Of a DNA stretch of 63,965 nt, positions 14,404 to 63,965 are shown piece after piece (position 1 is the first letter of the stretch; every line of letters begins with the position of its first letter). Source of the DNA: a virus; UHGV virus genome UHGV-0122909. The stretch is one strand, 5' to 3'. The notes beneath the pieces are model-generated. The model had not been told where the DNA came from. It ran no database searches and saw only the letters and a list, made by a program, of their open reading frames with translations. The translations under genes were made by a program, and so were the position numbers.

Positions 14404-14412
14404 GAGCTGAAT

Positions 14413-15673: not shown

Positions 15674-15674
15674 C

Positions 15675-18189: not shown

Positions 18190-18271
18190 ATTATCAATTA
18201 TGGTGCTATCACCTACGACACCGAGAGAAAATTTATAATGTCAAAAGTAAATGTTTTGATTTTTTCAGCAA

Positions 18272-18661: not shown

Positions 18662-18667
18662 ATTTAT

Positions 18668-19042
18668 ATGATGACACTAAAACATTTTCTTGACCGCCCA
18701 TTATGGGCGGCAGCCGCAGGCTATGACTTTAATTATATGGATTGCATGTCTTATACCGCCAATGCATACGACTATTCCTTCAGTCTGCTGCTTAATTCTT
18801 TAAGAATATTGCCGCAAACAGAAGTTGGAGAGCTTCATTTATGGCTATTGGGCTTTATCGCGGCTGGAGTTGGTATTGCTGTATGGCCTTTTATTTTCTG
18901 GCTGGTGGCTGTTGTAGTGTGGTTTAAGTGCAAGACGTACCGGAGAAAGTATTTCTTAGGTGATGGAATGACTGATATTGCCAAAATGAACATTGAAAAA
19001 TGGACTAAGGAATGTGAAAAGAAATGGCGCAAAAAGAAATGA
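18668..19042 (+). CDS. Hypothetical membrane protein
   Basis: Hydrophobic segment LWLLGFIAAGVGIAVWPFIFWLVAVVVWF. Confidence 0.4.
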   Translation: MMTLKHFLDRPLWAAAAGYDFNYMDCMSYTANAYDYSFSLLLNSLRILPQTEVGELHLWLLGFIAAGVGIAVWPFIFWLVAVVVWFKCKTYRRKYFLGDGMTDIAKMNIEKWTKECEKKWRKKK

Positions 19043-33051: not shown

Positions 33052-33720
33052 GTGGCTTTTCTTTTTTGTAGGGGCGCTATGGATAAGAAAATATGCGTTG
33101 TTTCGATGAGCGTCGGCAAACCGGCGTCAATGACTGCTGCATGGATCAACAACGAGCTGATAATGGCTGAGCGGACCAGCTACCCTGAACGCCGCCGCGA
33201 TATGGAACTCCAGCTGCTGCGCGAATTGCGAGAAAAAGAGGAAAAGGGTTTTATCGTGCTGGTGGAAGAGGAAAACAGCTTTATTACTGGTCGAGTTGGC
33301 CAGCGTGTAAGGTTGCGCGATCCCTTCATGAACGGCAGGCCGGTACTAATTGAGGCAATGCAGATTTATAAGGAGCTGGAACGCCAGAAAGCAATCAAGT
33401 TACCGCGCAAGGAATCCGGCAAATACATCCTCCACCAAAGCATCTTCGATTCCGAACACGATAAAAAAGGCGATGAATTTTTCAACATCAACTGGAGCGA
33501 AATAACGACAGAGCATGTTCTGACGTTACTATGTTGCTTTGCGACGGAATACAACAACGTTGCCAGCGCCGACTACATCAGGGCAATGGCTGGAGAAGTT
33601 GAGGCACGCCAGGAACCATCGTTACTAAGCCCTCTGATTAACATAATTCGCGGCACCCAAACGCTGGCACAAAAACAGGTGCCTAAGGGAGTATTAACAG
33701 GAAAAGGAAATTATCTATAA
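33052..33720 (+). CDS. Hypothetical protein (P1 mat position)
   Basis: 222 aa ORF between ref and the accessory SIR2 gene. Real start may be the internal MDKKICVV. Confidence 0.45.
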   Translation: MAFLFCRGAMDKKICVVSMSVGKPASMTAAWINNELIMAERTSYPERRRDMELQLLRELREKEEKGFIVLVEEENSFITGRVGQRVRLRDPFMNGRPVLIEAMQIYKELERQKAIKLPRKESGKYILHQSIFDSEHDKKGDEFFNINWSEITTEHVLTLLCCFATEYNNVASADYIRAMAGEVEARQEPSLLSPLINIIRGTQTLAQKQVPKGVLTGKGNYL

Positions 33721-33776
33721 ACGTCAATGCATTAGGGTATACTTCTCCGTAGAACTATAAGTAAATGGAGTAAGTA

Positions 33777-35081
33777 ATGAGCGAGTATATAGAAATTGCC
33801 TATGCAGCGGCTACACATAGGCTGTGCTTTCTTACAGGCACTGGATTTTCAAAGGCTGTTTCTGATGATAAAGCCCCAAGTTGGCAATCTTTATTGGAGC
33901 AACTGTGCGGTTTATTGAAGGATGGTGACTCACTCAAAGAGGAATTATTTCCTGATGGAAAAGCAAAAGACCTTAGCCTTGAAGAAGCTGCTCAGGTTAT
34001 TGCACTAAAACTTATACTTTCGGGGAAAAATATTTACCAAGAGATTGAGAAAATCATAGCCTCAATCGAACTTGATCCATCAATTGAATATATTCAAGAC
34101 TTTTTCAAAGAAAACACATTTAAAGTAATTACGACAAATTATGACAAGTTAGCAGAAAAGCTGGCTGGAGAGAATCGAACTTGTACAATCACCCCCGGCC
34201 TGCCAATTCCAAAATATAATTGTGAGGTTAAAGTCTACCATGTTCACGGTTCTATAGACTCCCCATCAGACATGGTTGTTACTAGCGAGGATTATTTCAG
34301 ATTTATAAATGGTAATTCTTACTTTTCTAATAAACTAAGCACAGTTCTACATGAAAACACTATTGTTATCCTTGGCTATTCTCTAAGTGACGCGAACCTA
34401 AAGGCTATTATAAATGAATATAAGGTATTTTCACGGGACAACGTAATGTCCTCCAATATTTTCCTTGTTTCCCGAGGGGAACTATTGCAACCTATTAAAG
34501 ATTACTATTTTTCCTGCTATGGGGTTAGGGTTATAGATAAAACAGAGGTATCTGATTTCTTTAGAAAACTTAACGATAAAATTCCAGAAGCAAAAAAAAT
34601 AAAAGACAAATTGAGGCACTCAATCAAATCGGTAATAAAAAACGGAAGAGAGTATAAAATAGAGTTCTTGAAGCTAGAGGATTCTTTTTATCATATCATT
34701 TCCTCCATTTCATCATCTGGATATAGCTGGAATAATGAAAATGTATTAAATGTTTTTTGTAATATAATAGATAAAAAAATAGAGCTTACTAAAAAGCCTG
34801 GCGCATGGGAGCAGTATGAACACCTGGCAAAATGGCTTATTTATTTCGGTAGTTTATTTGAAGTAAAAGGAACCAATTTTGAGAAAAAATACATACATGC
34901 GGTTGAACACTCAATGACTTATATGAATAAACCTTACGAAACAGGCTACTCATGGCGAGCATATCTAGCCTGGAAAACAAAATGGCCTTCACTGACAGCA
35001 TCTAACCGCTCTCTTATTAAGAATGAGATGGAAGATATCCCGCTACAACAGATTCACGATATTGTATCTAAGTTTATATAG
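33777..35081 (+). CDS. SIR2-family (SIR2_2-type) protein, candidate NAD+-depleting defense effector
   Basis: 434 aa. N-terminal SIR2 motifs in canonical order: FLTGTGFSKA (GxG loop), VITTNYDKLAE (catalytic Asn), VYHVHGSI (catalytic His), ILGYSLSD. C-terminal ~200 aa helical region of unknown type. Visibly AT-rich. Occupies the res/mod position of P1. Confidence 0.8.
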   Translation: MSEYIEIAYAAATHRLCFLTGTGFSKAVSDDKAPSWQSLLEQLCGLLKDGDSLKEELFPDGKAKDLSLEEAAQVIALKLILSGKNIYQEIEKIIASIELDPSIEYIQDFFKENTFKVITTNYDKLAEKLAGENRTCTITPGLPIPKYNCEVKVYHVHGSIDSPSDMVVTSEDYFRFINGNSYFSNKLSTVLHENTIVILGYSLSDANLKAIINEYKVFSRDNVMSSNIFLVSRGELLQPIKDYYFSCYGVRVIDKTEVSDFFRKLNDKIPEAKKIKDKLRHSIKSVIKNGREYKIEFLKLEDSFYHIISSISSSGYSWNNENVLNVFCNIIDKKIELTKKPGAWEQYEHLAKWLIYFGSLFEVKGTNFEKKYIHAVEHSMTYMNKPYETGYSWRAYLAWKTKWPSLTASNRSLIKNEMEDIPLQQIHDIVSKFI

Positions 35082-35122
35082 TATATTTATCTCCGGCCTA
35101 ATCTCCCTAGGCCGGAGAGTTC

Positions 35123-46386: not shown

Positions 46387-46403
46387 TATTGCTCTAATTA
46401 ATT
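46387..46403. promoter_or_regulatory. C1 operator-like site upstream of ssb
   Basis: ATTGCTCTAATTAATTT, about 20 bp upstream of the ssb start. Confidence 0.55.
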
Positions 46404-46423
46404 TATTTTATTAGGTAAGATAA

Positions 46424-46912
46424 GTGGCACAACGCGGTGTAAACAAAGTCATCCTGATTGGTACCCTGGGGCAAGACCCGGAGATCAGGTATATACCAAA
46501 TGGCGGCGCGGTCGGAAGACTCAGCATCGCAACGAATGAATCATGGCGCGACAAGCAAACGGGCCAACAGAAAGAGCAAACAGAATGGCATAAAGTCGTT
46601 TTGTTCGGAAAACTTGCTGAAATTGCGAGTGAGTATTTACGAAAAGGTTCTCAGGTCTACATCGAAGGGAAACTTAAAACCCGTAAGTGGACAGATGACG
46701 CCGGTGTAGAACGTTACACGACGGAAATTATCGTCAGCCAGGGCGGCACCATGCAAATGATCGGCGCTCGCCGTGACGATTCACAGTCCTCAAATGGCTG
46801 GGGGCAATCAAACCAACCTCAAAACCACCAGCAATACAGCGGTGGCGGTAAACCTCAGAGCAACGCCAATAACGAACCTCCAATGGACTTTGACGACGAT
46901 ATTCCGTTTTAG
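46424..46912 (+). CDS. ssb: Single-stranded DNA-binding protein
   Basis: 162 aa, GTG start, OB-fold N-terminus and acidic tail DFDDDIPF. Paralogous to the SSB in the lambdoid module. Confidence 0.95.
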
Positions 46913-46953
46913 AGTTAACTTGTGAGTTATTTGTAAAGAATCCATACGCAGGC

Positions 46954-46977
46954 CCCTGTTAATTCAGGGGTTTTTTG
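46954..46977 (+). terminator. Rho-independent terminator after ssb
   Basis: CCCCTGttaattcAGGGG followed by TTTTTTG. Confidence 0.65.
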
Positions 46978-47049
46978 TTTCTATCGTCGGAAAAAGTGTC
47001 TTGTATAAATTGGTGATTTTTCACATAAAGTGTACCTTGTAATTGTGTA

Positions 47050-48318
47050 ATGTTTATGGGGTGTGAGTGCATGGAAAAGAACTACAGAGTTACAACATTT
47101 GTCATGGATAGTGGCGAGCGCTATTGCATGGTAGTGGATCGTGCTTCTGGGCTTCCCATGTATTACCCCACTCTGTTTCTAACAACTCAAATCCGCAATA
47201 GAGAGGATGCTTTTTCAACGATGTTGGCGGCGGCTAACAACCTGGTTATGTTGTTACGCTTTGTAGAGAGTCGCGACATTGACCTTGAGCAGCGGTTTTT
47301 GACCAAAGACTTCTTCAAGCCACATGAGCTGGATGATCTGCGAGATTTTGCTCAGTGCAAACAAAGAAAGGGGCCATTAACTGTGTCCTCTACCTCTTGG
47401 TTGGCCGATGCGATGACCGATATCGTTGATAACGGGACACAGCATTCCCGGCTAACAACGTTTGCCAACTATTTACACTGGTATGCGATGCATATCTTAA
47501 AGACGACAGAACTGGAAGTTGTCGAAAAGATCAATGCTATGGCGGCGCAGATAAAGACGCGCCGACCATCTAAAAAGCGCAGAAACCACGACTTACAAGA
47601 CAGGTCATTGAGTGATGTTCAATTGGACGCGCTATTTGAAGTCATCCAGCCTAGATCAGAGTTAAACCCTTTCTCAATAGATGTGCAGCGCCGCAATCGG
47701 CTGATGATCTTACTTCTGTTTTATCTTGGCATCCGAGGTGGTGAATTATTAAATATAAGAATACAGGACATAGATTTTAGCGCTAACAGGATCCGTATCG
47801 TTAGGAGAGCAGATGAACAAGCTGACTCTAGAACCAATGAGCCTAATGCTAAAACTAGAGAACGGCTCTTACCGTTGGCTGAATCCTTAGCTCAAGAACT
47901 GCATAGTTATATCCTTCAAGATCGCCGGAAAGTCAGAAATGCGAAGAAAAATGACTATCTGTTTGTAACTTACAAGAGTGGACCAACTCTGGGAAATCCT
48001 ATCTCCAAAGGGGGATATCATAAAATTTTTTCCGTAGTCAGGTCTATATCACCGCAATTGTATGCAGCGACAGGACATTCGCTCCGCCACACTTGGAATC
48101 GCAAGTTTTCAGAAAGAATGGATGCCATGAATGAGCAAGTCAGCGAGGAACGCCAAGAGCAACTTCGTTCGTACTTAATGGGCTGGAGAGATGGCTCGGG
48201 AACCGCAGCGACTTACAACAAGCGTTTCATTCGGCAAAAAGGTTTTGAGGCCGCCTTGGCATTACAAGCAGGTAACGGCACTAGCTTGCCAGAGGACTTC
48301 AAGGATGACCATGAATAA
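47050..48318 (+). CDS. Tyrosine recombinase A (phage integrase family)
   Basis: 422 aa with LGIRGGELLNI (Arg), GHSLRHTW (His-x-x-Arg) and AATYNKRF (catalytic Tyr). Confidence 0.8.
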   Translation: MFMGCECMEKNYRVTTFVMDSGERYCMVVDRASGLPMYYPTLFLTTQIRNREDAFSTMLAAANNLVMLLRFVESRDIDLEQRFLTKDFFKPHELDDLRDFAQCKQRKGPLTVSSTSWLADAMTDIVDNGTQHSRLTTFANYLHWYAMHILKTTELEVVEKINAMAAQIKTRRPSKKRRNHDLQDRSLSDVQLDALFEVIQPRSELNPFSIDVQRRNRLMILLLFYLGIRGGELLNIRIQDIDFSANRIRIVRRADEQADSRTNEPNAKTRERLLPLAESLAQELHSYILQDRRKVRNAKKNDYLFVTYKSGPTLGNPISKGGYHKIFSVVRSISPQLYAATGHSLRHTWNRKFSERMDAMNEQVSEERQEQLRSYLMGWRDGSGTAATYNKRFIRQKGFEAALALQAGNGTSLPEDFKDDHE

Positions 48319-49843
48319 CCTCTTACTTGGGTTAGTACCAGAACGAATCCGTGCCAGGGCCAATGGCTACTCTTTTCTGTTGTATGACACATCGTGGACA
48401 TTGGATAGAAATATCACTATTAATCTTGCTGATATTCACCATTACTTGTCAGATGGGACGCTAGATGGCTGCCTGCGTACACTGGCGTTTTATGCATCCA
48501 ATCGTTCTTCTTCTCATACAAAAAATATTCTTGAACGGTTTCAGCACATGCTGCGTGAGACTGACGCGAGAGAAATTACTGATACGGTATTGATTAATTA
48601 TCGGTCGATGCTGTCGCCTGCAACAGAATGGTATCTAGCAACCATCCGTGGCTTTCTTCGATCCTGGCACGAACTGGGCTATCCCGGCATCAGTAAGGAG
48701 GTGAACCGCTTGCTAGATGGCTGGACGCTAAAGGGTAATCGTAAGGGGGATGCGGTTAAGCGCATGGATCCTCAAGAGGGGCCACTGACGGATAATGAGC
48801 TGACAGCGTTTAACGAGGGGGCTGTTCGGGCTTATGAAAAGAGCTTAATTACTATAGCTGAGTTGGCTATAGCACTTGGCACCAGTCATACAGGACGTCG
48901 TCCCATTCAGATCTCGCTGCTTCGTGTGGTCGATGTCCTTTGTGGTAAAAATGGAAAGGGAGAGCCCTTCTATGTGTTGAATGTGCCGCGAGCCAAGCAG
49001 CGCAGCAGCTCTTTCCGAATAAACTTCAAACCATTTGCAATATCACTGGAACTATGGGCAATCCTGAGTGCTCAGGCAAGAAATGCGATTGCGCAGGTTG
49101 AAAATCGTTTGGGGTTTGAATTGCAGGAAGATGACCGGCAGCAAATCCCTCTTTTTCCTGATCTTGATGTGTTAGATGCCGTCCAATCTCCTTATGAATT
49201 CCGCCAACTGCATGCTACCGACAAACTCCACATTCCCGCCGCAGAGATAACCGACACCCTCCAATACATCGTAGAAAAGTCCGACATCCGGTCGGAACGT
49301 ACCGGTGAGCTATTACATATCAATGCTCGTCGTTTTCGTTATACCACAGGCACACGAGCTGCCCGGGAAGGCTTTGGCGAGCTGGTGATTGCGGAACTGC
49401 TTGACCACGCGGACACCCAAAACGCAGGCGTTTACATCAAGAATATCCCCGAGCATGTGAAAAAGCTTGATGAGGCGGTTGGCTTCCAATTAGCACCATA
49501 CGCTCAGGCCTTTGTCGGGGCACTTGTCGATTCAGAGAGAGACGCGCATCGAGGTAACGACCCTACCAGTCGTATTCGGACCGAAATGGGTCAGGGTGTT
49601 GGTACTTGTGGAGAACATGGCTTTTGTGGTGCCAATGTTCCTATTCCTTGCTACACCTGCATGCATTTCCAGCCTTGGCTGGACGGCCCACATGAAGATG
49701 TCTATCAAGGACTGCTCAACGAACGTGAACGGGTGAAAGAGATAACTGGCGACATCCAGATTGCTGCCGTACTTGATCGCAGTATTATCGCGCTGGCAGA
49801 TGTGATCATGCGTTGTGCAAAACGTCGTGAAGAGCTTAGTTAA
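48305..49843 (+). CDS. Tyrosine recombinase B
   Basis: Probable start MTMNNLLLG at 48305 overlapping the upstream stop. C-terminal RRFRYTTGTRAAREG...LLDHAD...GVYIKN is recombinase-like. Confidence 0.65.
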   Translation: MTMNNLLLGLVPERIRARANGYSFLLYDTSWTLDRNITINLADIHHYLSDGTLDGCLRTLAFYASNRSSSHTKNILERFQHMLRETDAREITDTVLINYRSMLSPATEWYLATIRGFLRSWHELGYPGISKEVNRLLDGWTLKGNRKGDAVKRMDPQEGPLTDNELTAFNEGAVRAYEKSLITIAELAIALGTSHTGRRPIQISLLRVVDVLCGKNGKGEPFYVLNVPRAKQRSSSFRINFKPFAISLELWAILSAQARNAIAQVENRLGFELQEDDRQQIPLFPDLDVLDAVQSPYEFRQLHATDKLHIPAAEITDTLQYIVEKSDIRSERTGELLHINARRFRYTTGTRAAREGFGELVIAELLDHADTQNAGVYIKNIPEHVKKLDEAVGFQLAPYAQAFVGALVDSERDAHRGNDPTSRIRTEMGQGVGTCGEHGFCGANVPIPCYTCMHFQPWLDGPHEDVYQGLLNERERVKEITGDIQIAAVLDRSIIALADVIMRCAKRREELS

Positions 49844-49859
49844 CAGGGAGCAATAACCA

Positions 49860-51893
49860 ATGGCTGAGATTTTCCTGTTTAAGCCAAAGGCTACGCTGAC
49901 AGCAGCAGAAAACCTTGAAGCATTCATATCCCAGTGCCGAGATCAATTGACTGTATTCGGCTCTGATCTCACTTGGGAAGATCCTGTTTGGCCAAACATA
50001 ACTGTATTTGCCAAGTTGGGCATTATTACGAGAAAACCCATACTGGAAGAGACGCAAGACCCTGCTTTCATTGATTTTGCCAAAGCCTATTTCCGTTACC
50101 AGCAGGGGCATAGCCTCTCTAGGGCAAAGAATGAAAGTAAAGCCCTCCGTGCGGTTGAGGCGGCTTTGCTTCAAGTAAATGGAAACGCAAATATTGATGG
50201 CCTGTCGATTTCTGTGCTGGATGAAGCAGCTGAATTGGCAAAGCATTACTACTCCGATGGCTCCGCATATCATTGTGGCCGTGAGATTGAGCGGCTGGCT
50301 AAGTTTGTAGCTGAAAACCAGCTTGTATCAAGTGCTGTACAAAATTGGGTCAATCCAATTAAACGTGCAGAGGATAAGAACAAAACGAGCAGAAAGGCGA
50401 AGAAAAATAGGGAAGATAAACTTCCGAGTGATATTGCTCTTAATGCGTTGGCGGAAATTTTTGCCAACGACCCAATTCATGAGCGAGACATATTTACAAC
50501 ATCGGTTTTTGCCATGTTGATGTCGGCACCTTCACGTATTACTGAGGTGTTAGCACTGCCTGTGGATTGCGAGGTTTTTGAAACGGATCGTGAAGGGATA
50601 GAACGATATGGTTGGCGTTTTTTTGCGGGGAAAGGCTATGAGGGTGATATCAAATGGATACCCACCGTGATGGTCGGTATAGCTAAGACAGCCGTAGCTA
50701 GAGCTAGAGTGCTCTCTGAAAATGCACGACAACTGGCCAAGTGGATCGAGAAACACCCGAATAAGTTTTACCGCCATGCTAACTGTCCCAGTGTAGCCGA
50801 TGATGAGCCATTGACGATGAAGCAGGTTTGTATGGCGCTCGGTTTTGCACATTACTCTAAAAAGACGTGCAGGTCGTGTCTTGGTAATCGAGGTTTAGCT
50901 AAAGAGGATGGTGTACATACTCTAAATAGCCTGTGGCAGCACACAATGGCGCGTTTACCGGATGACTTTCCGTGGTTTGATAAAGACAAGGGAATTAGGT
51001 ACAGCAATGCCTTGTTTGTACTGAACGTAAATCAGTTCCACGGGAACAGAGGATGCATACCAGTTGAGTTACATAAGCCAACCAATAATTTCTTCAACAG
51101 TGATCTGACGCCTCGTCTGTCCTTGAAAGGAAAACATGCCAGTATCTTTGATCGCCATGGTTACCATGCTGTAAACGGAGAGCCGGTGAAATTAACCTCA
51201 CATCAGGCTCGACACCTGCTCAACACCATTATCCAGCGCGGTGGCCTGTCAAACTTGGAAATTGCCAAGTGGTCGGGGCGGGCAGATGTGAAACAGAATC
51301 GAACTTACAACCACATGACTGAATACGAACTGGTTGGCATTGCTGAACGCCTTGATCCCACAACAGCGCTATTTGGGCCTGCTGGCGAGGTGGCAAAGCA
51401 TCTGCCCGTGACTATGCAGGAGTTCAATACCTTAGAGCATGCCGCAGTCCATGTGACGGAGTATGGCTACTGTGTGCATGATTACACCATGAGTCCTTGT
51501 GAGAAATTCCGAGATTGCGTCAATTGTACCGAACAGGTTTGCATCAAAGGCGATGATGCTGAAAAGTTGGATCGCATTAAGATACGTCTGGAGAAATTAG
51601 AGCGACTGTTTTTTCTTGCTGACGCAGCAGTGGAAAGTGGTGAGATAGGAACTGATCGCTGGTATCAGTACCACAAGAAAACTGTTACCCGGCTTCGTGA
51701 ACTAGTGGCTATTTTAGAGAATCCAGACATTGAAAATGGTGTCCAGATTAAGCTCCGGGGCAATGATTTCAGCCAGCTTCGCCGTGTTGTCGCAAAGACG
51801 TCTATTGTGGCCATCGAGCAAAAAGGCAAAGAAAGTGAAGAAGCTGTGATGTTAGATGATTTGACAACTTTGTTAGGAGGTGGCCTTGGCTAA
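49860..51893 (+). CDS. Tyrosine recombinase C
   Basis: 677 aa with LTSHQARHLLNT (His-x-x-Arg-His) and NRTYNHMT (Tyr). Confidence 0.7.
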   Translation: MAEIFLFKPKATLTAAENLEAFISQCRDQLTVFGSDLTWEDPVWPNITVFAKLGIITRKPILEETQDPAFIDFAKAYFRYQQGHSLSRAKNESKALRAVEAALLQVNGNANIDGLSISVLDEAAELAKHYYSDGSAYHCGREIERLAKFVAENQLVSSAVQNWVNPIKRAEDKNKTSRKAKKNREDKLPSDIALNALAEIFANDPIHERDIFTTSVFAMLMSAPSRITEVLALPVDCEVFETDREGIERYGWRFFAGKGYEGDIKWIPTVMVGIAKTAVARARVLSENARQLAKWIEKHPNKFYRHANCPSVADDEPLTMKQVCMALGFAHYSKKTCRSCLGNRGLAKEDGVHTLNSLWQHTMARLPDDFPWFDKDKGIRYSNALFVLNVNQFHGNRGCIPVELHKPTNNFFNSDLTPRLSLKGKHASIFDRHGYHAVNGEPVKLTSHQARHLLNTIIQRGGLSNLEIAKWSGRADVKQNRTYNHMTEYELVGIAERLDPTTALFGPAGEVAKHLPVTMQEFNTLEHAAVHVTEYGYCVHDYTMSPCEKFRDCVNCTEQVCIKGDDAEKLDRIKIRLEKLERLFFLADAAVESGEIGTDRWYQYHKKTVTRLRELVAILENPDIENGVQIKLRGNDFSQLRRVVAKTSIVAIEQKGKESEEAVMLDDLTTLLGGGLG

Positions 51894-52305
51894 GCATCTG
51901 GACAATAGAGACATTAATGCCATCGTAAATCTAATTCGAGGATGGAAGGAACCAAAACTGTCCTGGTCAGCAATTTGTGAGGCGGCAGAACCATTGGTCG
52001 GAAAGTTGCCGTCAAGACAGTCCCTTAATGCACATGAGGCAATAGTGACTGCCTATCAAACAAAGAAAGAGGCGCTTAAAGGCCGTGGCCCCAAAAATCC
52101 GCGTCCAGCTAGTTTGAACATTGCAGCCGCGAGGATTGTGAATCTTGAAAGCGAAATCGAAGAGCTTAAGGAAGAGAACCGGAGGTACAAACAACAGTTT
52201 GTGATCTGGCAATACAATGCATACAAATATGGAATGACAGAACATCAACTTAATGCGCAGCTGACAAAGATTGACCGTGAGCGCTCTGATGGAGAAAGAA
52301 GATAG
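51880..52305 (+). CDS. Small coiled-coil accessory protein (TnpC-like position)
   Basis: 141 aa overlapping the recombinase C stop by 14 nt. C-terminal coiled coil LESEIEELKEENRRYKQQF. Confidence 0.4.
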   Translation: MALAKHLDNRDINAIVNLIRGWKEPKLSWSAICEAAEPLVGKLPSRQSLNAHEAIVTAYQTKKEALKGRGPKNPRPASLNIAAARIVNLESEIEELKEENRRYKQQFVIWQYNAYKYGMTEHQLNAQLTKIDRERSDGERR

Positions 52306-52380
52306 TTGCTGAGTACGATATCGAGGGTACATTTCTCTGTGTAGGGGTAGTTATTTACAAAAAAATAGGAGAATAATTAA

Positions 52381-55300
52381 ATGGTCAAACCAAACTGGGA
52401 TAACTTTAAAGCTAAATTTAGTGAGAATCCTCAAGGTAATTTTGAGTGGTTTTGCTACTTGTTGTTCTGTCAAGAATTCAAAATGCCCGCAGGTATATTT
52501 AGATATAAGAATCAATCTGGTATCGAAACTAATCCAATAACCAAAGATAATGAAATTATCGGTTGGCAATCTAAATTCTATGACACAAAATTGTCGGATA
52601 ACAAAGCTGATCTTATAGAAATGATTGAGAAAAGCAAAAAGGCTTATCCAGGATTAAGTAAAATCATTTTCTATACTAATCAAGAGTGGGGGCAGGGGAG
52701 AAAGTCCCATGAACCTGAAGGCGATAAGAACGCTGATAATTATTTGGAAACTGTCGGAAATAGTAACGATCCCAAAATAAAAATTGAAGTTGATCAGAAA
52801 GCATATGAGTCGGGTATCGAAATAGTATGGAGAGTTGCTAGTTTTTTTGAATCACCGTTTGTAATAGTTGAGAATGAAAAGATTGCTAAACATTTCTTCT
52901 CCCTTAATGAAAGCATCTTTGATTTATTAGAAGAAAAGCGCAAGCACACAGAAAATGTTTTATATGAAATTCAAACCAATATAGAGTTCAAAGACAGAAG
53001 TATTGAAATTGACAGACGACATTGTATAGAACTTCTACATGAGAATCTAGTTCAGAAAAAAATTGTCATCGTCAGCGGAGAAGGTGGGGTTGGAAAAACA
53101 GCAGTTATCAAAAAAATTTATGAAGCAGAAAAACAATACACTCCTTTCTATGTCTTTAAGGCTAGCGAGTTTAAAAAGGACAGTATTAATGAGCTATTCG
53201 GTGCGCATGGCTTAGACGATTTCTCTAATGCTCATCAAGACGAATTACGTAAAGTCATAGTCGTAGATTCTGCTGAAAAGCTTTTAGAACTGACCAATAT
53301 CGATCCTTTTAAAGAATTCCTGACTGTTTTAATAAAGGATAAATGGCAGGTTGTTTTCACAACCCGTAACAACTACTTGGCAGATCTGAACTATGCTTTC
53401 ATAGATATTTATAATATAACTCCTGAAAACTTAGTAATAAAGAACCTTGAACGCGGCGAGCTAATAGAGTTATCTGATAACAATGGATTTAGCCTTCCTC
53501 AAGATGTTCGATTATTAGAACTAATCAAAAATCCATTTTATCTAAGTGAATATTTGAGGTTCTATACCGGTGAAAGCATCGATTATGTGAGCTTCAAAGA
53601 AAAGCTTTGGAATAAGATTATTGTCAAAAATAAACCTTCTCGGGAGCAGTGTTTCTTAGCGACTGCTTTTCAGCGGGCTAGTGAGGGCCAATTTTTTGTC
53701 TCCCCGGCATGTGATACTGGAATTTTAGATGAGTTAGTTAAAGACGGAATTGTCGGCTATGAAGCTGCTGGTTACTTCATTACACATGATATATACGAGG
53801 AATGGGCATTAGAAAAGAAAATTTCTGTCGATTATATCCGTAAAGCGAACAATAACGAGTTCTTCGAAAAAATAGGAGAATCACTTCCTGTTCGCCGTAG
53901 TTTTCGGAATTGGATATCTGAACGATTGCTTTTAGATGACCAGTCCATAAAGCCTTTTATCGCAGAAATAGTCTGTGGAGAAGGAATATCAAATTTTTGG
54001 AAAGACGAGTTATGGGTAGCTGTCCTTCTTTCCGATAATTCAAGCATATTTTTTAATTACTTTAAAAGATATTTACTTAGTAGTGACCAGAATCTATTAA
54101 AAAGACTTACTTTCTTATTGAGGCTTGCTTGCAAGGACGTTGATTACGATCTGCTTAAACAGTTAGGTGTAAGTAATTCAGATCTGCTTTCCATTAAATA
54201 TGTTCTTACTAAGCCTAAGGGAACTGGTTGGCAGAGTGTGATCCAATTTATCTATGAAAATTTAGATGAAATAGGGATCAGAAATATTAATTTTATACTT
54301 CCTGTGATTCAGGAGTGGAATCAAAGAAACAAAGTGGGTGAAACGACTCGATTATCTAGTTTGATAGCCCTAAAATATTATCAATGGACTGTAGATGAGG
54401 ATGTCTATTTATCCGGAAGGGATAATGAGAAAAATATTCTGCATACGATTCTTCATGGGGCGGCCATGATTAAACCTGAAATGGAAGAGGTTTTAGTTAA
54501 GGTTCTTAAAAATAGGTGGAACGAGCACGGTACCCCATATTTCGACCTTATGACCTTAATCCTTACTGACTTAGATTCATATCCGGTTTGGGCATCTCTC
54601 CCGGAATATGTTCTACAATTGGCAGATCTGTTCTGGTATCGGCCACTTAAAGAAACAGGCGAACGTTATCACAGTATGGATATTGAAGATGAGTTCGGTC
54701 TATTTAGGTCTCATCACGACTATTATCCAGAAAGTCCATATCAGACTCCTATATATTGGTTACTACAATCACAGTTCAAAAAAACAATAGACTTTATTCT
54801 TGATTTTACGAACAAGACAACGATATGTTTTGCCCACTCCCATTTTGCTAAAAACGAAATTGAAGAAGTCGATGTCTTTATTGAAGAAGGAAAGTTTATA
54901 AAGCAATATATATGCAATCGTCTGTGGTGCTCATATCGAGGAACACAGGTCTCTACCTACTTACTTTCATCAATTCATATGGCATTGGAAAAATTTTTTC
55001 TTGAGAATTTTAAAAATGCAGACTCGAAAGTGTTGGAAAGTTGGCTTCTTTTCTTGTTAAGAAATACCAAGTCAGCTTCTATTTCTGCAGTAGTTACGAG
55101 TATTGTACTTGCATTCCCTGAGAAGACATTCAATGTAGCTAAAGTACTATTCCAAACAAAGGATTTCTTCCGTTTTGATATGAATCGAATGGTTCTAGAC
55201 AGAACACATAAAAGTTCATTAATCTCCCTCAGGGATGGCTTTGGCGGTACAGATTACAGAAACTCTTTGCACGAAGAAGATAGAATTAAAGCTTGCGATG

Positions 55301-57144
55301 ATGTGCATAGAAATACTTATCTTGAAAATCTTGCCTTGCATTATCAAATTTTCAGGAGTGAAAATGTAACGGAGAAAGATGTCATTGAAAGGCAACAAGT
55401 GCTCTGGGGTATTTTCGACAAATACTATAATCAGCTTCCAGATGAAGCTCAAGAAACTGAAGCCGATAAGACGTGGAGGCTCTGCTTGGCAAGAATGGAT
55501 CGGCGAAAGATGAAAATAACTACCAAGGAGAAAGATGAAGGGATTGAGATATCATTCAATCCTGAGATTGACCCTAAACTAAAGCAATATAGTGAGGAAG
55601 CAATAAAGAAAAACTCCGAGCATATGAAGTATGTAACGCTGAAACTATGGGCAAGCTATAAAAGAGAAAAGGATGAACGTTATAAGAATTATGGAATGTA
55701 TGAGGACAATCCGCAAATTGCTTTACAAGAGACCAAAGAAATAATAAAAAAGCTTAATGAGGAAGGGGGTGAAGATTTCAGACTATTAAATGGTAATATA
55801 CCAGCAGACGTTTGTTCTGTATTACTGTTAGATTACTTTAATCAGTTGAATAATGAAGAGAGAGAATATTGTAAAGATATTGTTCTAGCATATTCTCAAC
55901 TTCCGTTGAAGGAAGGCTATAATTATCAGGTACAAGATGGGACAACCTCGGCAATTTCAGCCTTACCCGTGATTTATCATAATTATCCAATGGAAAGGGA
56001 GACTATAAAAACAATATTACTTTTGACACTGTTTAATGACCACTCTATTGGAATGGCAGGTGGGCGCTACTCAGTATTTCCTAGTATGGTGATTCATAAA
56101 TTATGGCTAGACTATTTTGATGATATGCAGTCTCTATTGTTTGGTTTTTTGATTTTAAAGCCAAAGTATGTAATTCTTTCAAGAAAAATCATTCATGAAA
56201 GTTATCGTCAAGTAGACTATGACATTAAAAAAATAAATATTAATAAGGTGTTTTTAAATAACTATAAGCATTGCATATCAAATGTCATCGATAATAAAAT
56301 ATCTATAGATGATTTGGGAAGTATAGATATAGTTGATCTACATATTTTGAACACAGCTTTCCAATTAATTCCAGTTGATACTGTTAATATTGAACATAAG
56401 CAATTGGTTTCCTTAATTGTTAAAAGATTTTCTACAAGCCTATTGTCAAGTGTTCGAGAAGATAGAGTTGATTACGCTCTTCGGCAGTCTTTCTTGGAAA
56501 GATTTGCCTACTTTACGCTTCATGCGCCCGTGAGCGATATTCCCGATTATATAAAACCTTTTCTTGATGGTTTCAACGGTTCAGAGCCTATTTCAGAGTT
56601 ATTTAAAAAATTTATTCTCGTCGAAGATAGATTAAATACTTACGCCAAATTTTGGAAGGTTTGGGATTTGTTTTTTGATAAAGTGGTTACTTTGTGCAAG
56701 GATGGAGATAGGTATTGGTATGTAGATAAAATTATAAAAAGTTACCTTTTTGCTGAATCTCCATGGAAAGAAAACTCTAATGGTTGGCACACATTTAAAG
56801 ATAGCAATAGTCAATTCTTTTGCGATGTATCTAGGACTATGGGCCATTGCCCTTCAACTTTATATTCTCTTGCCAAATCTTTGAATAACATTGCCAGTTG
56901 CTATCTTAATCAAGGTATAACCTGGCTTTCAGAAATGTTGTCGGTTAATAAAAAGCTATGGGAAAAGAAATTGGAAAATGATACTGTTTATTTTTTAGAA
57001 TGTTTGGTTAGGCGGTATATTAACACTGAGCGTGAGCGAATTAGACGAACCAAACAGTTGAAAGAAGAGGTCTTAGTAATATTGGATTTTTTGGTAGAGA
57101 AAGGATCTGTTGTTGGTTATATGTCACGGGAAAATATTCTGTGA
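52381..57144 (+). CDS. Large STAND-type P-loop NTPase with N-terminal nuclease-like domain and ~1300-aa helical C-terminus (Avs-like)
   Basis: 1587 aa. Walker A IVIVSGEGGVGKTAV, Walker B KVIVVDSAEKL, then VVFTTRNNY (the hhhTTR STAND/NB-ARC signature). N-terminal ~220 aa contains ...DNEIIGWQSKFY..., a possible PD-(D/E)xK-like core. Strongly AT-rich. Confidence 0.7.
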   Translation: MVKPNWDNFKAKFSENPQGNFEWFCYLLFCQEFKMPAGIFRYKNQSGIETNPITKDNEIIGWQSKFYDTKLSDNKADLIEMIEKSKKAYPGLSKIIFYTNQEWGQGRKSHEPEGDKNADNYLETVGNSNDPKIKIEVDQKAYESGIEIVWRVASFFESPFVIVENEKIAKHFFSLNESIFDLLEEKRKHTENVLYEIQTNIEFKDRSIEIDRRHCIELLHENLVQKKIVIVSGEGGVGKTAVIKKIYEAEKQYTPFYVFKASEFKKDSINELFGAHGLDDFSNAHQDELRKVIVVDSAEKLLELTNIDPFKEFLTVLIKDKWQVVFTTRNNYLADLNYAFIDIYNITPENLVIKNLERGELIELSDNNGFSLPQDVRLLELIKNPFYLSEYLRFYTGESIDYVSFKEKLWNKIIVKNKPSREQCFLATAFQRASEGQFFVSPACDTGILDELVKDGIVGYEAAGYFITHDIYEEWALEKKISVDYIRKANNNEFFEKIGESLPVRRSFRNWISERLLLDDQSIKPFIAEIVCGEGISNFWKDELWVAVLLSDNSSIFFNYFKRYLLSSDQNLLKRLTFLLRLACKDVDYDLLKQLGVSNSDLLSIKYVLTKPKGTGWQSVIQFIYENLDEIGIRNINFILPVIQEWNQRNKVGETTRLSSLIALKYYQWTVDEDVYLSGRDNEKNILHTILHGAAMIKPEMEEVLVKVLKNRWNEHGTPYFDLMTLILTDLDSYPVWASLPEYVLQLADLFWYRPLKETGERYHSMDIEDEFGLFRSHHDYYPESPYQTPIYWLLQSQFKKTIDFILDFTNKTTICFAHSHFAKNEIEEVDVFIEEGKFIKQYICNRLWCSYRGTQVSTYLLSSIHMALEKFFLENFKNADSKVLESWLLFLLRNTKSASISAVVTSIVLAFPEKTFNVAKVLFQTKDFFRFDMNRMVLDRTHKSSLISLRDGFGGTDYRNSLHEEDRIKACDDVHRNTYLENLALHYQIFRSENVTEKDVIERQQVLWGIFDKYYNQLPDEAQETEADKTWRLCLARMDRRKMKITTKEKDEGIEISFNPEIDPKLKQYSEEAIKKNSEHMKYVTLKLWASYKREKDERYKNYGMYEDNPQIALQETKEIIKKLNEEGGEDFRLLNGNIPADVCSVLLLDYFNQLNNEEREYCKDIVLAYSQLPLKEGYNYQVQDGTTSAISALPVIYHNYPMERETIKTILLLTLFNDHSIGMAGGRYSVFPSMVIHKLWLDYFDDMQSLLFGFLILKPKYVILSRKIIHESYRQVDYDIKKININKVFLNNYKHCISNVIDNKISIDDLGSIDIVDLHILNTAFQLIPVDTVNIEHKQLVSLIVKRFSTSLLSSVREDRVDYALRQSFLERFAYFTLHAPVSDIPDYIKPFLDGFNGSEPISELFKKFILVEDRLNTYAKFWKVWDLFFDKVVTLCKDGDRYWYVDKIIKSYLFAESPWKENSNGWHTFKDSNSQFFCDVSRTMGHCPSTLYSLAKSLNNIASCYLNQGITWLSEMLSVNKKLWEKKLENDTVYFLECLVRRYINTERERIRRTKQLKEEVLVILDFLVEKGSVVGYMSRENIL

Positions 57145-57187
57145 TGTAGTTGAAAATAATAATTTTAATGAGAGCTTTTCCAATTTA

Positions 57188-57212
57188 GGCTCCAGGGATT
57201 GGAGCCTTTTTA
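57188..57212 (+). terminator. Rho-independent terminator after the NTPase gene
   Basis: GGCTCCAgggatTGGAGCC followed by TTTTTATT. Confidence 0.65.
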
Positions 57213-57239
57213 TTATCGAAAAGATTAATATCTTATAAG

Positions 57240-57458
57240 TCAATCAGTAAAACGCAGCAAAGCTCGTTGCTCTTGAATGTTCACTCCGTGATAAATTCTT
57301 TGATTACCACATAAATAACAAGAACAAGCACAAGGGGTGCAGTAAATTTTCCCTACAACTTTTTCAGTTTTAGCCAACGCAATTCGATATGTTTTTCTCT
57401 TAGATTTTAACCGAGATATATGATGACGACGCCATGCCCGATTTCTAACCATTTCCAT
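57240..57458 (-). CDS. Small basic Cys-cluster protein (hypothetical)
   Basis: 72 aa with an Arg/Lys-rich N-terminus and CTPCACSCYLCGN cluster. Confidence 0.3.
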   Translation of the reverse strand: MEMVRNRAWRRHHISRLKSKRKTYRIALAKTEKVVGKIYCTPCACSCYLCGNQRIYHGVNIQEQRALLRFTD

Positions 57459-57682
57459 TCACTCCAATTTTCTACCGCGGTGTTATACCGCGCCCGTATC
57501 AATCTTTGGAGTTCGATATCGATCTGACCTTTCATGAATACCTCGGAATTTATCAATAAAGTGAGTGCTATATCATAGCTTATGGGATGAAAGTTTGATA
57601 TTTAGCACTTTTCAGCTTTAGGTAAAGCTGTCCTCAATAAAGCTAATTTCTTGTTTATTAATGGAATTTCTATGTAGAAGTG

Positions 57683-58504
57683 TTAGAAATCCTGTTTTAC
57701 TTTATCCATCGTTAAAACTTTACTTATTATATAAGGATCATAATTTCTTATACTCATAAGGCAATTTATCAAATTGGAAACGTGGCTATCATCAGGAATA
57801 AGTATATATTTAATATCATCGAAAGAAAAACCAATGCCAAATTCAGAGAATTTTTTACTTAAGACGGCCTTCTGGTTAGGTTCCACCACTCGCTCTAAAT
57901 TTAGGCTAGGCCATAAATCGCCAACAAACGGATGCGGTACATATCTCCATTCTTTTTCGTCAGCGTAGATATAATTCTCAATGGTTTTTTCGTTCGTCCT
58001 TTCTAATTTCCCTTTATAATTTTTCATATAGCGTAATAAATTATAAAGGTCAGCGTACTCTTCTTTAAGGCTTTCAAAATACTTACGCTCTTTATTATCA
58101 AGGATATGCCTTTTCGACCATAGCGGAATTAACGCATCCTTTAGTTTTCTAATTCTTTTATTATACTTTGAAAATAATTCACTGCCTTGATTCATGTATA
58201 GAACGGGATGGAGATCATTTTTCTCAGCCCATTCTTTTGTTAACCCAAATCCAAATTCACCATATTTTCCACTATGATCTTTAATCTGAGAAAGCTTGAT
58301 GTCACAGAATGAAACCATTGGTACTGCGAAATTTCTTCTTCCTTTTACTCCGACTATGCGTTCACGGGCAAGAAATGGTTTAAAATAGAGTTCTGTTAAA
58401 ATGCTATAGAATGCCTCTTCATTTTTAGTAAAGTGAAACAACGTTGTTGGATGTAAACTATTAACTGCTTGTATAACTGTTTCTTGGTTTTCTATAGCAC
58501 TCAT
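57683..58504 (-). CDS. Hypothetical AT-rich protein, possibly abortive-infection-like
   Basis: 273 aa, convergent with the NTPase, strongly AT-rich. N-terminal TLFHFTK resembles some Abi-family proteins, but this is unverified. Confidence 0.4.
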   Translation of the reverse strand: MSAIENQETVIQAVNSLHPTTLFHFTKNEEAFYSILTELYFKPFLARERIVGVKGRRNFAVPMVSFCDIKLSQIKDHSGKYGEFGFGLTKEWAEKNDLHPVLYMNQGSELFSKYNKRIRKLKDALIPLWSKRHILDNKERKYFESLKEEYADLYNLLRYMKNYKGKLERTNEKTIENYIYADEKEWRYVPHPFVGDLWPSLNLERVVEPNQKAVLSKKFSEFGIGFSFDDIKYILIPDDSHVSNLINCLMSIRNYDPYIISKVLTMDKVKQDF

Positions 58505-58910
58505 ATATTAACTGTTCCATAGTGTAAAACCTGACTTAGCAAAGGTTATCATACTAGTCTTTGTACTGTAAGCACACTTGGTTTAATTCCACGCACTTTT
58601 TGAGATTTCCGGTTTTTTGATCTCTTACCAAAATCTATGCCAGATTGAATCAAAGGTCCGAGCTGGGTCACCAAAAAAAGTAAAATTATGCACTTTGATA
58701 GATTATATTTTAACTAAATTCTTTACAGTTAAATCATTTCTTATGCCTTAGTTTCTGATAAAAAAGGTTTTTTTTCACGATTTATAAGTATCAGGTTATG
58801 TGAACCGTTCTAACGAATAGCCCCCCCCGAGATATTGCTTTCGCTGGTGGGAAAACATTCCTGACCCACCTGAAGGCGCAATACATCAGGTTTTAAGCAG
58901 AGGAAAGACT

Positions 58911-59588
58911 ATGAATAACATGACAACGAAAGAGCTTTTGACGGCACTTCCAAAATACAAAAGCCATAAAACAGTTCGCGCCTCAAAAATCAAAGATATC
59001 GAAATTATCGCCCTAATGGATGTGGTCCTTTTTTGCAACATCGAAGTCGTTGAGCCAGAAGGGGTAAAAGTCCATGTTGATAAAATATTTTTGCAAAAAC
59101 ACCGACCAGAAATTGGCGGATATCTGGTCGCTTATGAGGACGGATCTCTGTCCTATTCACCAGAAAAAACATTTGAAGAAGGCTTTAGTCGGACTAACGA
59201 CTTCTTCGAAAATGGGGTATCGCTCAGCATTGAAGGTCACAATGGGGTGACATTCATTACAGCCAGGGACGTAACTATTTCTGCTGGCGGTATCGCTACT
59301 CTACAAGAAGAAATCGACCTTGAAGCAGCCGACTTTTCTGACGCGCTGATGTGGCTGAAGGATGGCAAGAAAGTTGCCCGACGCGGGTGGAACGGCGAAA
59401 ACCAATTCTGCTGGCTGGTTCCTGAAGGACAGTACCCGGCACGAATGGAAGCCATTAAGGGATATTTCCCCGGCGACCTCGTTCCGTATGGTGCTTATTT
59501 CGCCTTAAAAAATGCACAAGGTGTAGTTGTTCCGTGGGTTCCTTCTGTAGGCGACTTACTGGCATGTGACTGGTTTGTAGTGGAGTGA
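58911..59588 (+). CDS. Hypothetical protein with DUF2829-like (Tad2-like) C-terminal domain
   Basis: 225 aa. C-terminal ~80 aa LMWLKDGKKVARRGWNG...PWVPSVGDLLACDWFVV fits my recollection of DUF2829 (GW...PW.PS..DLLA.DW). Confidence 0.4.
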   Translation: MNNMTTKELLTALPKYKSHKTVRASKIKDIEIIALMDVVLFCNIEVVEPEGVKVHVDKIFLQKHRPEIGGYLVAYEDGSLSYSPEKTFEEGFSRTNDFFENGVSLSIEGHNGVTFITARDVTISAGGIATLQEEIDLEAADFSDALMWLKDGKKVARRGWNGENQFCWLVPEGQYPARMEAIKGYFPGDLVPYGAYFALKNAQGVVVPWVPSVGDLLACDWFVVE

Positions 59589-59594: not shown

Positions 59595-60383
59595 GTGGAA
59601 AATACTAAAGCAATTCAATACCGCCTGCGTAATGGTCAGAGTGTCGAAGTGACCATCAATAATGATGGTGTGCCTGGCGAAAAGGTTTCGATCTCTGATC
59701 TGGCTATCGAAAAAACCATCATGTGCCACCTTGGCTTTACTGAAGAAGTGAGCAAAAAGCATGGTGTAGCAATCTGGAGCGCAATGGATACTGGTATGCG
59801 CAGATTCATTACTGCTCGTACCCCAGGGATGACCATGATGGACCTCATGCAGATTGCGCCGCTGTTTGAATGTGAGCCTTTAGATGTATTCAGCAATCCA
59901 GCTATCTGCCAGCAGCTATATGGTGAGATGAAACTCGCGGTTACCCCCATTGTGCTGCATGAAGGATCGCTTGCTGGCGTATGGAAAGTAGAGAGAATTT
60001 CAAGCTACATGCCCTTCCACTTCCATGTCAACGGCATAATCACTGGTGAAAACCAACCTGTTTCCGTTACAAAGTCAGACCTCAAGCGCGCAATTCTTGA
60101 AGCAAGTTGTCGAGTTATCGGCCTGGGCAAACAGTCTTATGTTTCCTTCCCGGCTGGCCCTGAAGGCCCGGCAGAAATTCTGATTATGGATGCCGATCTG
60201 CTCTGGCAAATACAGTTTCTGATTGGCAAAAGCATCATCCGCGCTGAAGAACTCGATCAGTACATTACCTGCACGATGACGGATGAAGTCAAAAGTGTGG
60301 CTATAGCCAATGCCCGGAACCTATGTCGTGCTGCATTAACAGAACTGCAAGAAAACACCACGGAAGAAGTGGAAAGCGATTAA
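59595..60383 (+). CDS. Hypothetical protein
   Basis: 262 aa, start 7 nt after the upstream stop, followed by a bidirectional terminator. Confidence 0.4.
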   Translation: MENTKAIQYRLRNGQSVEVTINNDGVPGEKVSISDLAIEKTIMCHLGFTEEVSKKHGVAIWSAMDTGMRRFITARTPGMTMMDLMQIAPLFECEPLDVFSNPAICQQLYGEMKLAVTPIVLHEGSLAGVWKVERISSYMPFHFHVNGIITGENQPVSVTKSDLKRAILEASCRVIGLGKQSYVSFPAGPEGPAEILIMDADLLWQIQFLIGKSIIRAEELDQYITCTMTDEVKSVAIANARNLCRAALTELQENTTEEVESD

Positions 60384-63698: not shown

Positions 63699-63797
63699 CC
63701 CTGTTACGCCTTATCCAATGTGCCGCCCCCTACGCTCCTCATAGTGGGGATATAAGGCACAGTTTTCCTCCCGGCTATTTTTGCTTAAAATAGTGAC

Positions 63798-63965
63798 ATG
63801 AAACAACAGGTGTCATTCAAATTCCGGTTAAAACCAGATGGTCAACAGGAGCGTCAAATGAGGCGCTTTGCCGGAGCTTGTCGTTTCGTTTTCAACCGTG
63901 CTCTGGCGCTTCAGAATGAGAATCATGAGGCCGGTAATAAATACATCCCTTACGGGAAAATGGCT
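63798..63965 (+). CDS. tnpB: IS200/IS605-family TnpB (OrfB) transposase-like, N-terminal fragment (runs off the window)
   Basis: MKQQVSFKFRLKPDGQQERQMRRFAGACRFVFNRALALQNENHEAGNKYIPYGKMA..., the typical TnpB N-terminus. No stop before the window end, so absent from the ORF track. Confidence 0.6.
   Translation, partial: MKQQVSFKFRLKPDGQQERQMRRFAGACRFVFNRALALQNENHEAGNKYIPYGKMA

Follow-up and report, generated by a model that had tools for sequence, protein, structure and literature searches.

Eighteen homologues of the phage sponge protein Tad2 have been tested against signalling defence systems (Table S2, bioRxiv 10.1101/2025.08.24.671296), and one of them, Tad2_68 (87 aa, IMG/VR UViG_3300014659_000001), inhibits type I Thoeris in plaque assays and type II Thoeris in liquid and plaque assays while being negative against type IV Thoeris, two cyclic-oligonucleotide-based anti-phage signalling (CBASS) systems and two Pycsar systems. 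ModTad2 (or MoTad2) from a Myroides odoratus prophage (8V3E, 9EIB) sequesters histidine-ADP-ribose (His-ADPR) in its canonical pocket and cyclic UMP or CMP (cUMP/cCMP) in a second pocket, and glycocyclic ADP-ribose (gcADPR) is contacted by W25, N26, W73, S76 and D79 in Tad2 of phage SPO1 (Gp34.65; 8SME/8SMF/8SMG) and by W21, N22, G23, W87, S90 and D93 in HgmTad2, which is AcrIIA7 (8KBI-8KBM). A two-domain gcADPR sponge, the ryanodine receptor-like RyR Tad, is gp68 of Pectobacterium phage vB_PatP_CB1; it is a dimer whose N-domain forms a domain-swapped dimer with a five-stranded sheet in the crystal, and the N-domain alone (gp68_N, aa 1-86) is inactive against type I Thoeris (bioRxiv 10.64898/2026.06.04.730250). 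Fusions of one sponge to another are common, involving Sequestin (PF21825, a sponge for 3'cADPR) and Acb4 (PF13876), and include Tad2-Acb4 of phage Pm86, Tad2-Sequestin and Acb4-Sequestin (Ab09 gp59). Here we analysed an ATG-initiated open reading frame (ORF) of 678 nt, 58911..59588 (+), in the virus genome UHGV-0122909 (63,965 nucleotides, referred to throughout as the window), which has a P1-type phage-plasmid backbone. The 225-aa product is, in our judgement, likely to be a cytoplasmic anti-defence sponge of the Tad2 family for Thoeris signals, with an accessory N-terminal domain, encoded in island-free relatives by an early gene of the ssb operon.

A DUF2829/Tad2-like domain at the C-terminus had been proposed in a first-pass annotation of this DNA on the basis of a peptide, LMWLKDGKKVARRGWNG...PWVPSVGDLLACDWFVV, which corresponds to aa 146-224 of the ORF, and the hidden Markov model (HMM) search and the structural comparison with Tad2 that it recommended both supported the assignment. 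PF11195 ('Tad2-like', Pfam-A) matched aa 141-224 over profile positions 2-73 of 73 with 80.2 bits (E = 1.6e-22; gathering cut-off 25 bits), and the significant phmmer matches among PDB sequences were all Tad2 proteins (ModTad2 9EIB, 6e-20, and 8V3E; HgmTad2/AcrIIA7 8KBI; SPO1 Tad2 8SME; SptTad2 8WJD). An AlphaFold2 (AF2) monomer model built on an alignment of 41 full-length homologues showed Tad2 topology over aa 140-225 (helices 142-150 and 213-217; strands 154-157, 166-170, 196-200, 206-208 and 221-224) and was well supported except at an insertion, aa 171-195, where the predicted local distance difference test (pLDDT) score was 44-60. When the model was compared with the PDB by Foldseek the top 24 matches were all Tad2 structures, with target-normalised template-modelling (TM) scores of 0.60-0.86; ModTad2 scored 0.71-0.86 (apo form 0.86) and SPO1 Tad2 0.68-0.81, the best match was ModTad2 with His-ADPR (9EIB), and SPO1 Tad2-gcADPR and HgmTad2 were also matched. 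The C-terminal domain is a genuine Tad2-like/DUF2829 domain, and the match lies far beyond chance.

The residues that contact gcADPR in SPO1 Tad2 and HgmTad2 align with conserved W160 (59388-59390), N161, G162, W209 (59535-59537), S212 and D215 of the window protein, which shares its fold and these core contacts with both at 38-39% identity over aligned columns. ModTad2 is the best solved relative (45% identity, Foldseek E = 4e-8), although it has a single domain, as have SPO1 Tad2 and HgmTad2, does not inhibit type I Thoeris and has pocket residues T, D and S where the window protein has N201, Q203 and G214. The insertion at aa 171-195 is in the same length class as that of ModTad2 and lies where HgmTad2 and MoTad2 have their second pocket; the insertion of HgmTad2, which binds cGG and cGAMP, is much longer. 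The closest tested homologue was Tad2_68, which we located in the supplements of the 2025 sponge preprint by its GWNG motif, the exact P1-type sequence not being found there. It is 68% identical over 82 aa (aa 140-221; blastp 2e-42) and shares with the window protein both the insertion type (YPARMEA.KG...VPY.AYFALKNAQG) and a clade-specific pocket lining (N201, Q203, V207, G214), but it is a stand-alone protein of a metagenomic virus whereas the window protein has 137 extra N-terminal residues. The HMM match, the fold, the conserved ligand contacts and the identity to a tested inhibitor together uphold the earlier suggestion of a candidate anti-Thoeris sponge.

Comparison of the window with three D6-like alleles revealed a single amino acid substitution in the Tad2 domain of one allele and none in the other two (dN, the nonsynonymous rate, ~0; dS, the synonymous rate, 0.02-0.17), near-constancy despite synonymous change that indicates strong purifying selection on this part. 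The residues of helix alpha1 and the interface are invariant in the 41 homologues, which is consistent with a homotetramer rather than a test of one. By comparison with the solved proteins, aa 138-225 would assemble through helix alpha1 and the beta sheet into a Tad2 homotetramer, with pockets at the protomer interfaces that would sequester ADP-ribose-derived alarm molecules made by Toll/interleukin-1 receptor (TIR) proteins, with 3'cADPR (type I) and His-ADPR (type II) as the most probable ligands. On entry into a Thoeris-carrying Enterobacterium, or on induction there, the phage-plasmid would in this way keep the Thoeris effector from being switched on.

The first-pass annotation had left the N-terminal ~140 aa unassigned. 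Part of it can now be assigned: aa 11-97 are homologous to the oligonucleotide/oligosaccharide-binding (OB) fold of Dec, the capsid decoration protein of phage L, and to the first domain of RyR Tad. Neither a Pfam nor an NCBIfam model matches the N-domain. In the AF2 model aa 11-97 form a separate beta-rich domain (pLDDT 86-94), and the sole PDB match of the model other than Tad2 was Dec (6E3C; Foldseek E = 1.2e-3 over 95 columns). A narrow profile of the N-family run against PDB sequences found Dec at E = 5.6e-6, with the match extending into the linker, and a broad profile found it at E = 1.4e-4 around a common KPEVGGYL...FE..Y core; the linker alone matched Dec weakly (aa 98-125 to Dec 95-121, E = 0.008). 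Several conserved polar residues of the N-family are not kept in Dec, which ends in a trimeric beta-helix, binds capsids and is not known to have a sponge domain. Alignment of aa 11-99 with residues 2-73 of gp68 of phage CB1 by hhalign gave a probability of 96% (E = 3.9e-9). RyR Tad has the same architecture as the window protein, a homologous N-domain followed by a gcADPR sponge domain, and its gene also lies in an anti-signalling hotspot beside replication and single-stranded DNA-binding protein (SSB) genes; its sponge domain differs in being all-helical and resembling ryanodine-receptor Repeat12, not Tad2.

A profile of the N-terminal part was searched against 1.84 billion representative proteins and gave 3079 proteins at E <= 1e-3, of which 472 reached E <= 1e-10. 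The family (~85 aa) has the consensus KH.P..GGY.V.YEDGY.SYSP..FE.GY, and the window protein keeps H19, K20, H64, P66, G69, G70, Y71, Y75, D77, G78, S81, S83, P84, F88, E89 and G91. Among the 140 top representative proteins 72 were essentially stand-alone N-domains of ~90 aa, and the only recurrent Pfam partners were sponges: PF21825 (seven proteins), PF11195 Tad2 (six) and PF13876 (five), with a single further fusion to an Acb2/Tad1 hairpin. One protein (P0181) has the order N-domain-Acb4-Sequestin and another (P0171) has two N-domains followed by Acb4. The window protein resembles the fused sponges in joining modules within a single polypeptide, although both modules of those are validated whereas its own partner module is a candidate; no Pfam match to Sequestin or Acb4 was present in the protein, and phmmer with seeds of these families gave zero matches in the six-frame ORFs of the window.

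Of the 140 proteins, 49 contain at least 60 aa without an assignment (e.g. P0130, P0132, P0133, P0154, P0236, P0237, P0248). Most of these stretches are C-terminal and most stayed singletons when clustered, and because of the company the N-domain keeps these tails are candidates for further sponge or anti-defence modules. In a protein of 2919 aa (P0131) 19 separate stretches matched positions 68-134 of the N-part profile, the end of the N-domain and the stalk, which suggests that this segment resembles the repeat unit of a fibre- or adhesin-like protein. Vibrio phage proteins of 394 aa named 'MazG' (phrog_37613; BFVD A0A384WK77) matched residues 134-221 of the query, and SSP002-like Vibrio phages seem to carry a MazG-like pyrophosphatase fused to the N-domain and/or a Tad2-like domain, which would be another combination of enzyme and sponge. 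Stand-alone N-domain genes were seen in Ralstonia phage GP4 (3486-3761 of the examined locus; between portal and major head genes, beside a CsrA-like gene), in Bas106 (3501-3788; after a lysis cassette and a Rha-like regulator) and in Dolphis (3495-3989; among small early-type genes, annotated 'capsid decoration protein').

We also compared the N-domain with described inhibitors. It is present in 36 INPHARED records, and because of this, and because Dec is its only match in the PDB, we rejected identity with Lockin, a hexameric curved beta protein described as absent from INPHARED. Identity with TadIV-1, which is the Vs.3 family of T4 and reportedly restricted to Straboviridae, was likewise rejected; judged by names and hosts, none of the 36 records is T4 or a T4-type phage. 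Tad3 is an unlikely identity, the preprint that annotates Tad3 in N4-like hotspots calling the gp68 N-domain a fold of unknown function.

The modules of the protein differ in their evolution. The N-domain and stalk (58941-59321) evolve fast (dN about 0.3), the N-domain of the window differing from those of D6-like alleles with a dN of 0.28-0.31 and a dN/dS of ~0.45, and the Tad2 part is near-invariant. The linker occurs in two allelic forms that recombine independently of the flanking modules; one D6-like allele (L013) has a stalk almost identical to that of the window (dS 0, dN 0.03) and a diverged N-domain, which indicates recombination of the modules independently of each other. A further D6-like allele, that of pN17S0016-2, encodes a Tad2-only protein of 112 aa, exactly the part coding for the N-domain being cleanly missing while Tad2 is kept. 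Among P1-like alleles the insertion in the Tad2 fold takes at least three alternative forms, and in one of them N161 is replaced by K. Relatives of the C-domain that are 80-98% identical, several on contigs of ~89-95 kb (the size of P1 and D6), include dUTPase-Tad2 (cluster P0056), Tad2-Sequestin, X-Tad2-Sequestin and a variant with a tail-fibre repeat (PF03406), the Tad2-Sequestin fusions lying on P1-size contigs. The slot at this locus behaves as a small hotspot for sponge modules.

In the P1 annotation C1-controlled promoters, P1ssb and P2ssb, are placed at ssb. The window retains the corresponding C1 operator (Ossb) with 1 mismatch next to an ssb gene whose product was confirmed as SSB by Pfam, and in p12579_1, a plasmid without the island, ssb is followed by 197 bp, a 100% identical Tad2-like gene, 6 nt, the isaA homologue and then hxr and ddrB on the opposite strand. 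Repression of ssb by C1 in P1, the kept operator and the position of the Tad2-like gene directly 3' of ssb in p12579_1 point to an early, repressor-controlled ssb operon as its ancestral setting; as second gene of this operon it would, in the island-free relatives, be expressed at once upon infection or induction. In the window an island of 11.9 kb (46911-58812) has taken the place of 101 bp of the spacer between ssb and the gene, as judged against p12579_1. The first-pass annotation placed the gene just outside an island, and this is accurate, the insert ending at 58812 with the start codon 98 bp beyond. The island carries three consecutive tyrosine-recombinase-like ORFs (at 47050, 48191 and 49860, the middle one matching NCBIfam integrase_1 with 677 bits), an ORF of 141 aa with only weak coiled-coil-type Pfam matches, Avs4 (1587 aa, PADLOC 2362 bits) and AbiGi (assigned with Pfam, PADLOC and NCBIfam). 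AbiGi, on the minus strand and with no recognisable AbiGii partner, is the divergent upstream neighbour of the Tad2-like gene. At the left edge of the island, just 3' of ssb, a terminator-like hairpin judged by eye (CAGGCCCCTG..CAGGGG, then a T-run; 46950-46980) would keep transcripts started at the C1-controlled ssb promoters from reading through. In the 406 bp 5' of the gene (58505-58910) a crude promoter scan gave no consensus sigma-70 site and no C1 operator was located; AT-rich -10-like motifs were seen by eye around 58780.

Several observations weigh against a Thoeris sponge expressed from an early operon. The gene is cleanly missing from reference P1 (NC_005856), in which the sequence matching 58813-58914 aligns through the ATG and P1 resumes at window position 59599; from this absence we take the gene to be accessory. 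Three peripheral pocket positions set the protein apart from every solved Tad2 (G214 in place of T/S, Q203 in place of D and N201 in place of T/A, corresponding to T78, D67 and T65), although they are common to Tad2_68. The linker, aa 98-137, was modelled as low-confidence beta segments, confidence was also low in the insertion loop, and only a monomer was modelled. A dimerising N-domain, possibly with a trimer-prone stalk, on a tetrameric domain raises a question of symmetry. The island and the terminator-like hairpin separate the gene from the ssb promoter, and the upstream scan found no consensus promoter.

The best-supported role for the ~85-aa N-terminal beta domain would be that of an oligomerising or accessory module of sponge proteins, as in RyR Tad, dispensable for sponge activity. 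We entertain, tentatively and as the less favoured view, that the N-domain is itself an overlooked anti-immune module, either a further family of signal sponges or a direct binder of host immune proteins; on this view phages would have fused it time and again with Tad2, Sequestin, Acb4, Acb2/Tad1 and RyR-Tad sponges, obtaining multi-target inhibitors, and an arms race with a host factor or signal would account for the speed at which it evolves in P1/D6 plasmids. That the window protein carries two active modules in the manner of Tad2-Acb4 and Acb4-Sequestin, the N-domain soaking up another signal or binding a host immune protein, seems rather doubtful to us. The recurrent partners of the N-domain are all sponge families, to which RyR Tad can be added, one protein places it before both Acb4 and Sequestin, about half of the family stands alone at roughly 90 aa, and its small size and homo-oligomerisation fit the stated 'rules' for sponges. 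The family also conserves H19, K20, H64, D77, S81, S83 and P84, of which the last five are not kept in Dec and the first two lie just outside the Dec alignment; the N-domain evolves fast (dN/dS about 0.45) beside a frozen Tad2 part, and Sequestin was itself discovered by the identical fusion logic through Pfam, which holds no model of the N-domain. Set against these points are the inactivity of gp68_N alone, the loss of the N-domain from a plasmid allele that keeps Tad2 and the purely structural role of the homologous Dec domain. We regard it as very improbable that the N-domain and stalk decorate a P1-type capsid, or that the protein is packaged like Dar/Ddr, with Tad2 displayed on or delivered with the particle. 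The sequence and fold homology to the Dec OB domain, a beta-rich segment following it as in Dec, the GP4 copy between portal and major head genes, the neighbouring hxr-ddrB-ddrA-darA block and the variant with a tail-fibre repeat would all suit a virion protein. However, the gene follows ssb or dut in early-type operons, not in a late operon with head morphogenesis genes, it is absent from reference P1, which is the standard laboratory phage, the match of the stalk to Dec is weak, Dec lacks several conserved polar residues of the N-family, other N-domain copies occupy accessory or moron positions, and a protein on the outside of the capsid would have no access to the signals, which are cytoplasmic.

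The cytoplasmic sponge that we favour could still be a silent passenger in this particular element, the island having uncoupled an intact gene from its promoter so that there is no useful expression. The replacement of spacer by 11.9 kb, the hairpin after ssb, the divergent AbiGi and the result of the upstream scan speak for it, but island-free plasmids carry the ORF in 100% identical form, its Shine-Dalgarno sequence is retained, the junction of island and gene is common to three sequenced plasmids, the promoter scan was crude and -10-like motifs can be seen by eye; on balance we think a silent gene improbable. Inhibition of CRISPR was the first activity linked to DUF2829, through Cas9, and the protein belongs to the same Pfam family as AcrIIA7/HgmTad2. 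The anti-CRISPR activity of AcrIIA7 was not reproducible and AcrIIA7 was shown to be a sponge, and on this published failure we rejected an AcrIIA7-type anti-CRISPR as scarcely credible. The CRISPR-Cas systems known from E. coli and Salmonella are of type I and not of type II-A.

The window also encodes a SIR2_2 protein of 434 aa (33777..35081, +; PF13289, E = 2e-23), and the first-pass annotation regarded a SIR2 defence gene together with a sponge as a notable pairing. We found no support for a functional link. The SIR2_2 ORF lies ~24 kb from the Tad2-like gene, where (within 33715-35122) it replaces the res/mod type III restriction-modification genes of P1 and is flanked by P1-homologous sequence. 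It matched models of ThsA, Dsr1 and Dsr2 over the SIR2 core only (ThsA: positions 107-215), its best PADLOC match was the candidate system PDC-S25, ~180 residues at its C-terminal end have no assignment, and no adjacent TIR partner was seen; we rejected an orphan ThsA on the core-only match and the better match to PDC-S25. Neither Avs4 nor AbiGi is known to depend on a diffusible signal of the kind that sponges capture. Tad2-like genes occur irrespective of the cargo, the co-occurrence of SIR2 and sponge looks incidental, and the sponge is expected to protect the element from Thoeris systems in new hosts rather than to interact with its own cargo.

Phage-plasmids of the P1 type are found widely among clinical E. 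coli, Shigella and Salmonella; they bring defence islands with them and have host immunity of their own to overcome. By megablast the Tad2-like gene was present in 229 of ~680 P1-like plasmid records, and a 2025 phage-plasmid preprint reports that 56% of the P1-group elements and 93% of the D6-group elements have DefenseFinder matches to 'Tad2 AcrIIA7 (anti-Thoeris)'; Tad2-like genes are thus found in roughly a third to a half of P1-like elements, whatever the cargo. The protein cluster at 90% identity has 453 member sequences, and the 678-nt ORF is 100% identical in two other plasmids, one of which is p12579_1. The presence of Tad2 in P1-like elements is already known, RefSeq naming this very protein 'DUF2829 domain-containing protein' and UniRef calling relatives 'Thoeris anti-defense Tad2 family protein'. 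The sponge assignment is right but, with the sponge already on record for P1-like plasmids, for the most part unremarkable, and the possible surprise lies in the N-domain. A search of the accessible literature found no prior domain dissection of the protein, no report of its clean absence from reference P1 and no link of the N-domain to Dec, RyR Tad or several sponge families. The N-domain precedes several unrelated sponge families and has no database model, so the Pfam-based fusion screen behind Sequestin could not have found it; it is a candidate for a new sponge or for a common oligomerising adaptor of sponges. If validated, a Thoeris sponge at a fixed early-operon slot that is present, absent or swapped would help to explain the host range of P1-like elements, and laboratory P1, which is without the gene, offers a ready-made test bed in P1vir with and without it.

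The coordinates of the features are collected in Table 1. Segments of window 19581-63714, the P1-type backbone, are 93-99% identical to P1. Window 1-19580 is only distantly related to P1, with no megablast match and three short blastn matches of ~66-70% identity, and the element is a mosaic whose left 19.5 kb come from a different lineage.

Table 1. Features of the Tad2-like locus and its surroundings (window positions except in the last row)
Feature	Position	Strand	Evidence or remark
Shine-Dalgarno-like sequence GAGGAAAG	58900..58907	+	3 nt 5' of ATG; read off the sequence
ORF, 225 aa: N-domain, beta-rich linker, Tad2-like domain	58911..59588	+	
N-domain, Dec-OB-like, aa 11-97	58941..59201	+	AF2, Foldseek, profile searches, hhalign
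Beta-rich linker/stalk, aa 98-137, varies among alleles	59202..59321	+	pLDDT <50
Tad2-like domain, aa 138-225 (Pfam match aa 141-224)	59322..59585	+	PF11195, Foldseek
Insertion between beta2 and beta3 of the Tad2 fold, aa 171-195	59421..59495	+	alignment to solved Tad2
Downstream partner gene, 262 aa, P1 IsaA homologue	59595..60383	+	GTG start 6 nt past the stop
Leftover native intergenic region between ssb and the Tad2-like gene	58813..58910	+	aligns to P1 and p12579_1
Inserted island, 11.9 kb	46911..58812	.	P1 match absent
C1 operator Ossb (46388-46404) and ssb (46424-46912)	46388..46912	+	putative ancestral upstream gene and early promoter region
ppp-like match to P1	2798-3084		blastn
ban-like match to P1	5638-5811		blastn
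Second ssb-like gene, match to P1	13926-14265		blastn
D6-like loci examined for the Tad2-like/isaA pair after dut	L007 (CP082672.1) 2864-3371; L011-L013		

The Tad2-like gene is followed by an isaA homologue in both P1-like and D6-like plasmids, and in the latter dut, not ssb, precedes the pair. The homologue in the window is 94.8% identical in nucleotide sequence to the 3' 785 bp of P1 isaA, and P1 isaA most likely starts at the ATG, with the ribosome-binding site, that serves the Tad2-like gene in the window. The annotation of P1 isaA (320 aa) appears over-extended at its 5' end relative to the 262-aa homologue (window 58813-58914 and 59599-60383 against P1 21569-22531). We rejected identity of the 225-aa protein with P1 IsaA or IsaB, P1 IsaA being the downstream 262-aa gene extended upstream. 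The isaA homologue had zero Pfam, PADLOC, NCBIfam or PDB sequence matches, belongs to PHROG 2326, whose function is unannotated, and gave an AF2 model (pLDDT 59) with no fold match, the best Foldseek result being dsRBD-like noise (E 0.17). The last 250 bp of the window (63715-63965), beyond the start of ddrB, have no P1 match, and at this position, between ddrB and ddrA, related plasmids carry an insQ/TnpB gene of the IS200/IS605 type.

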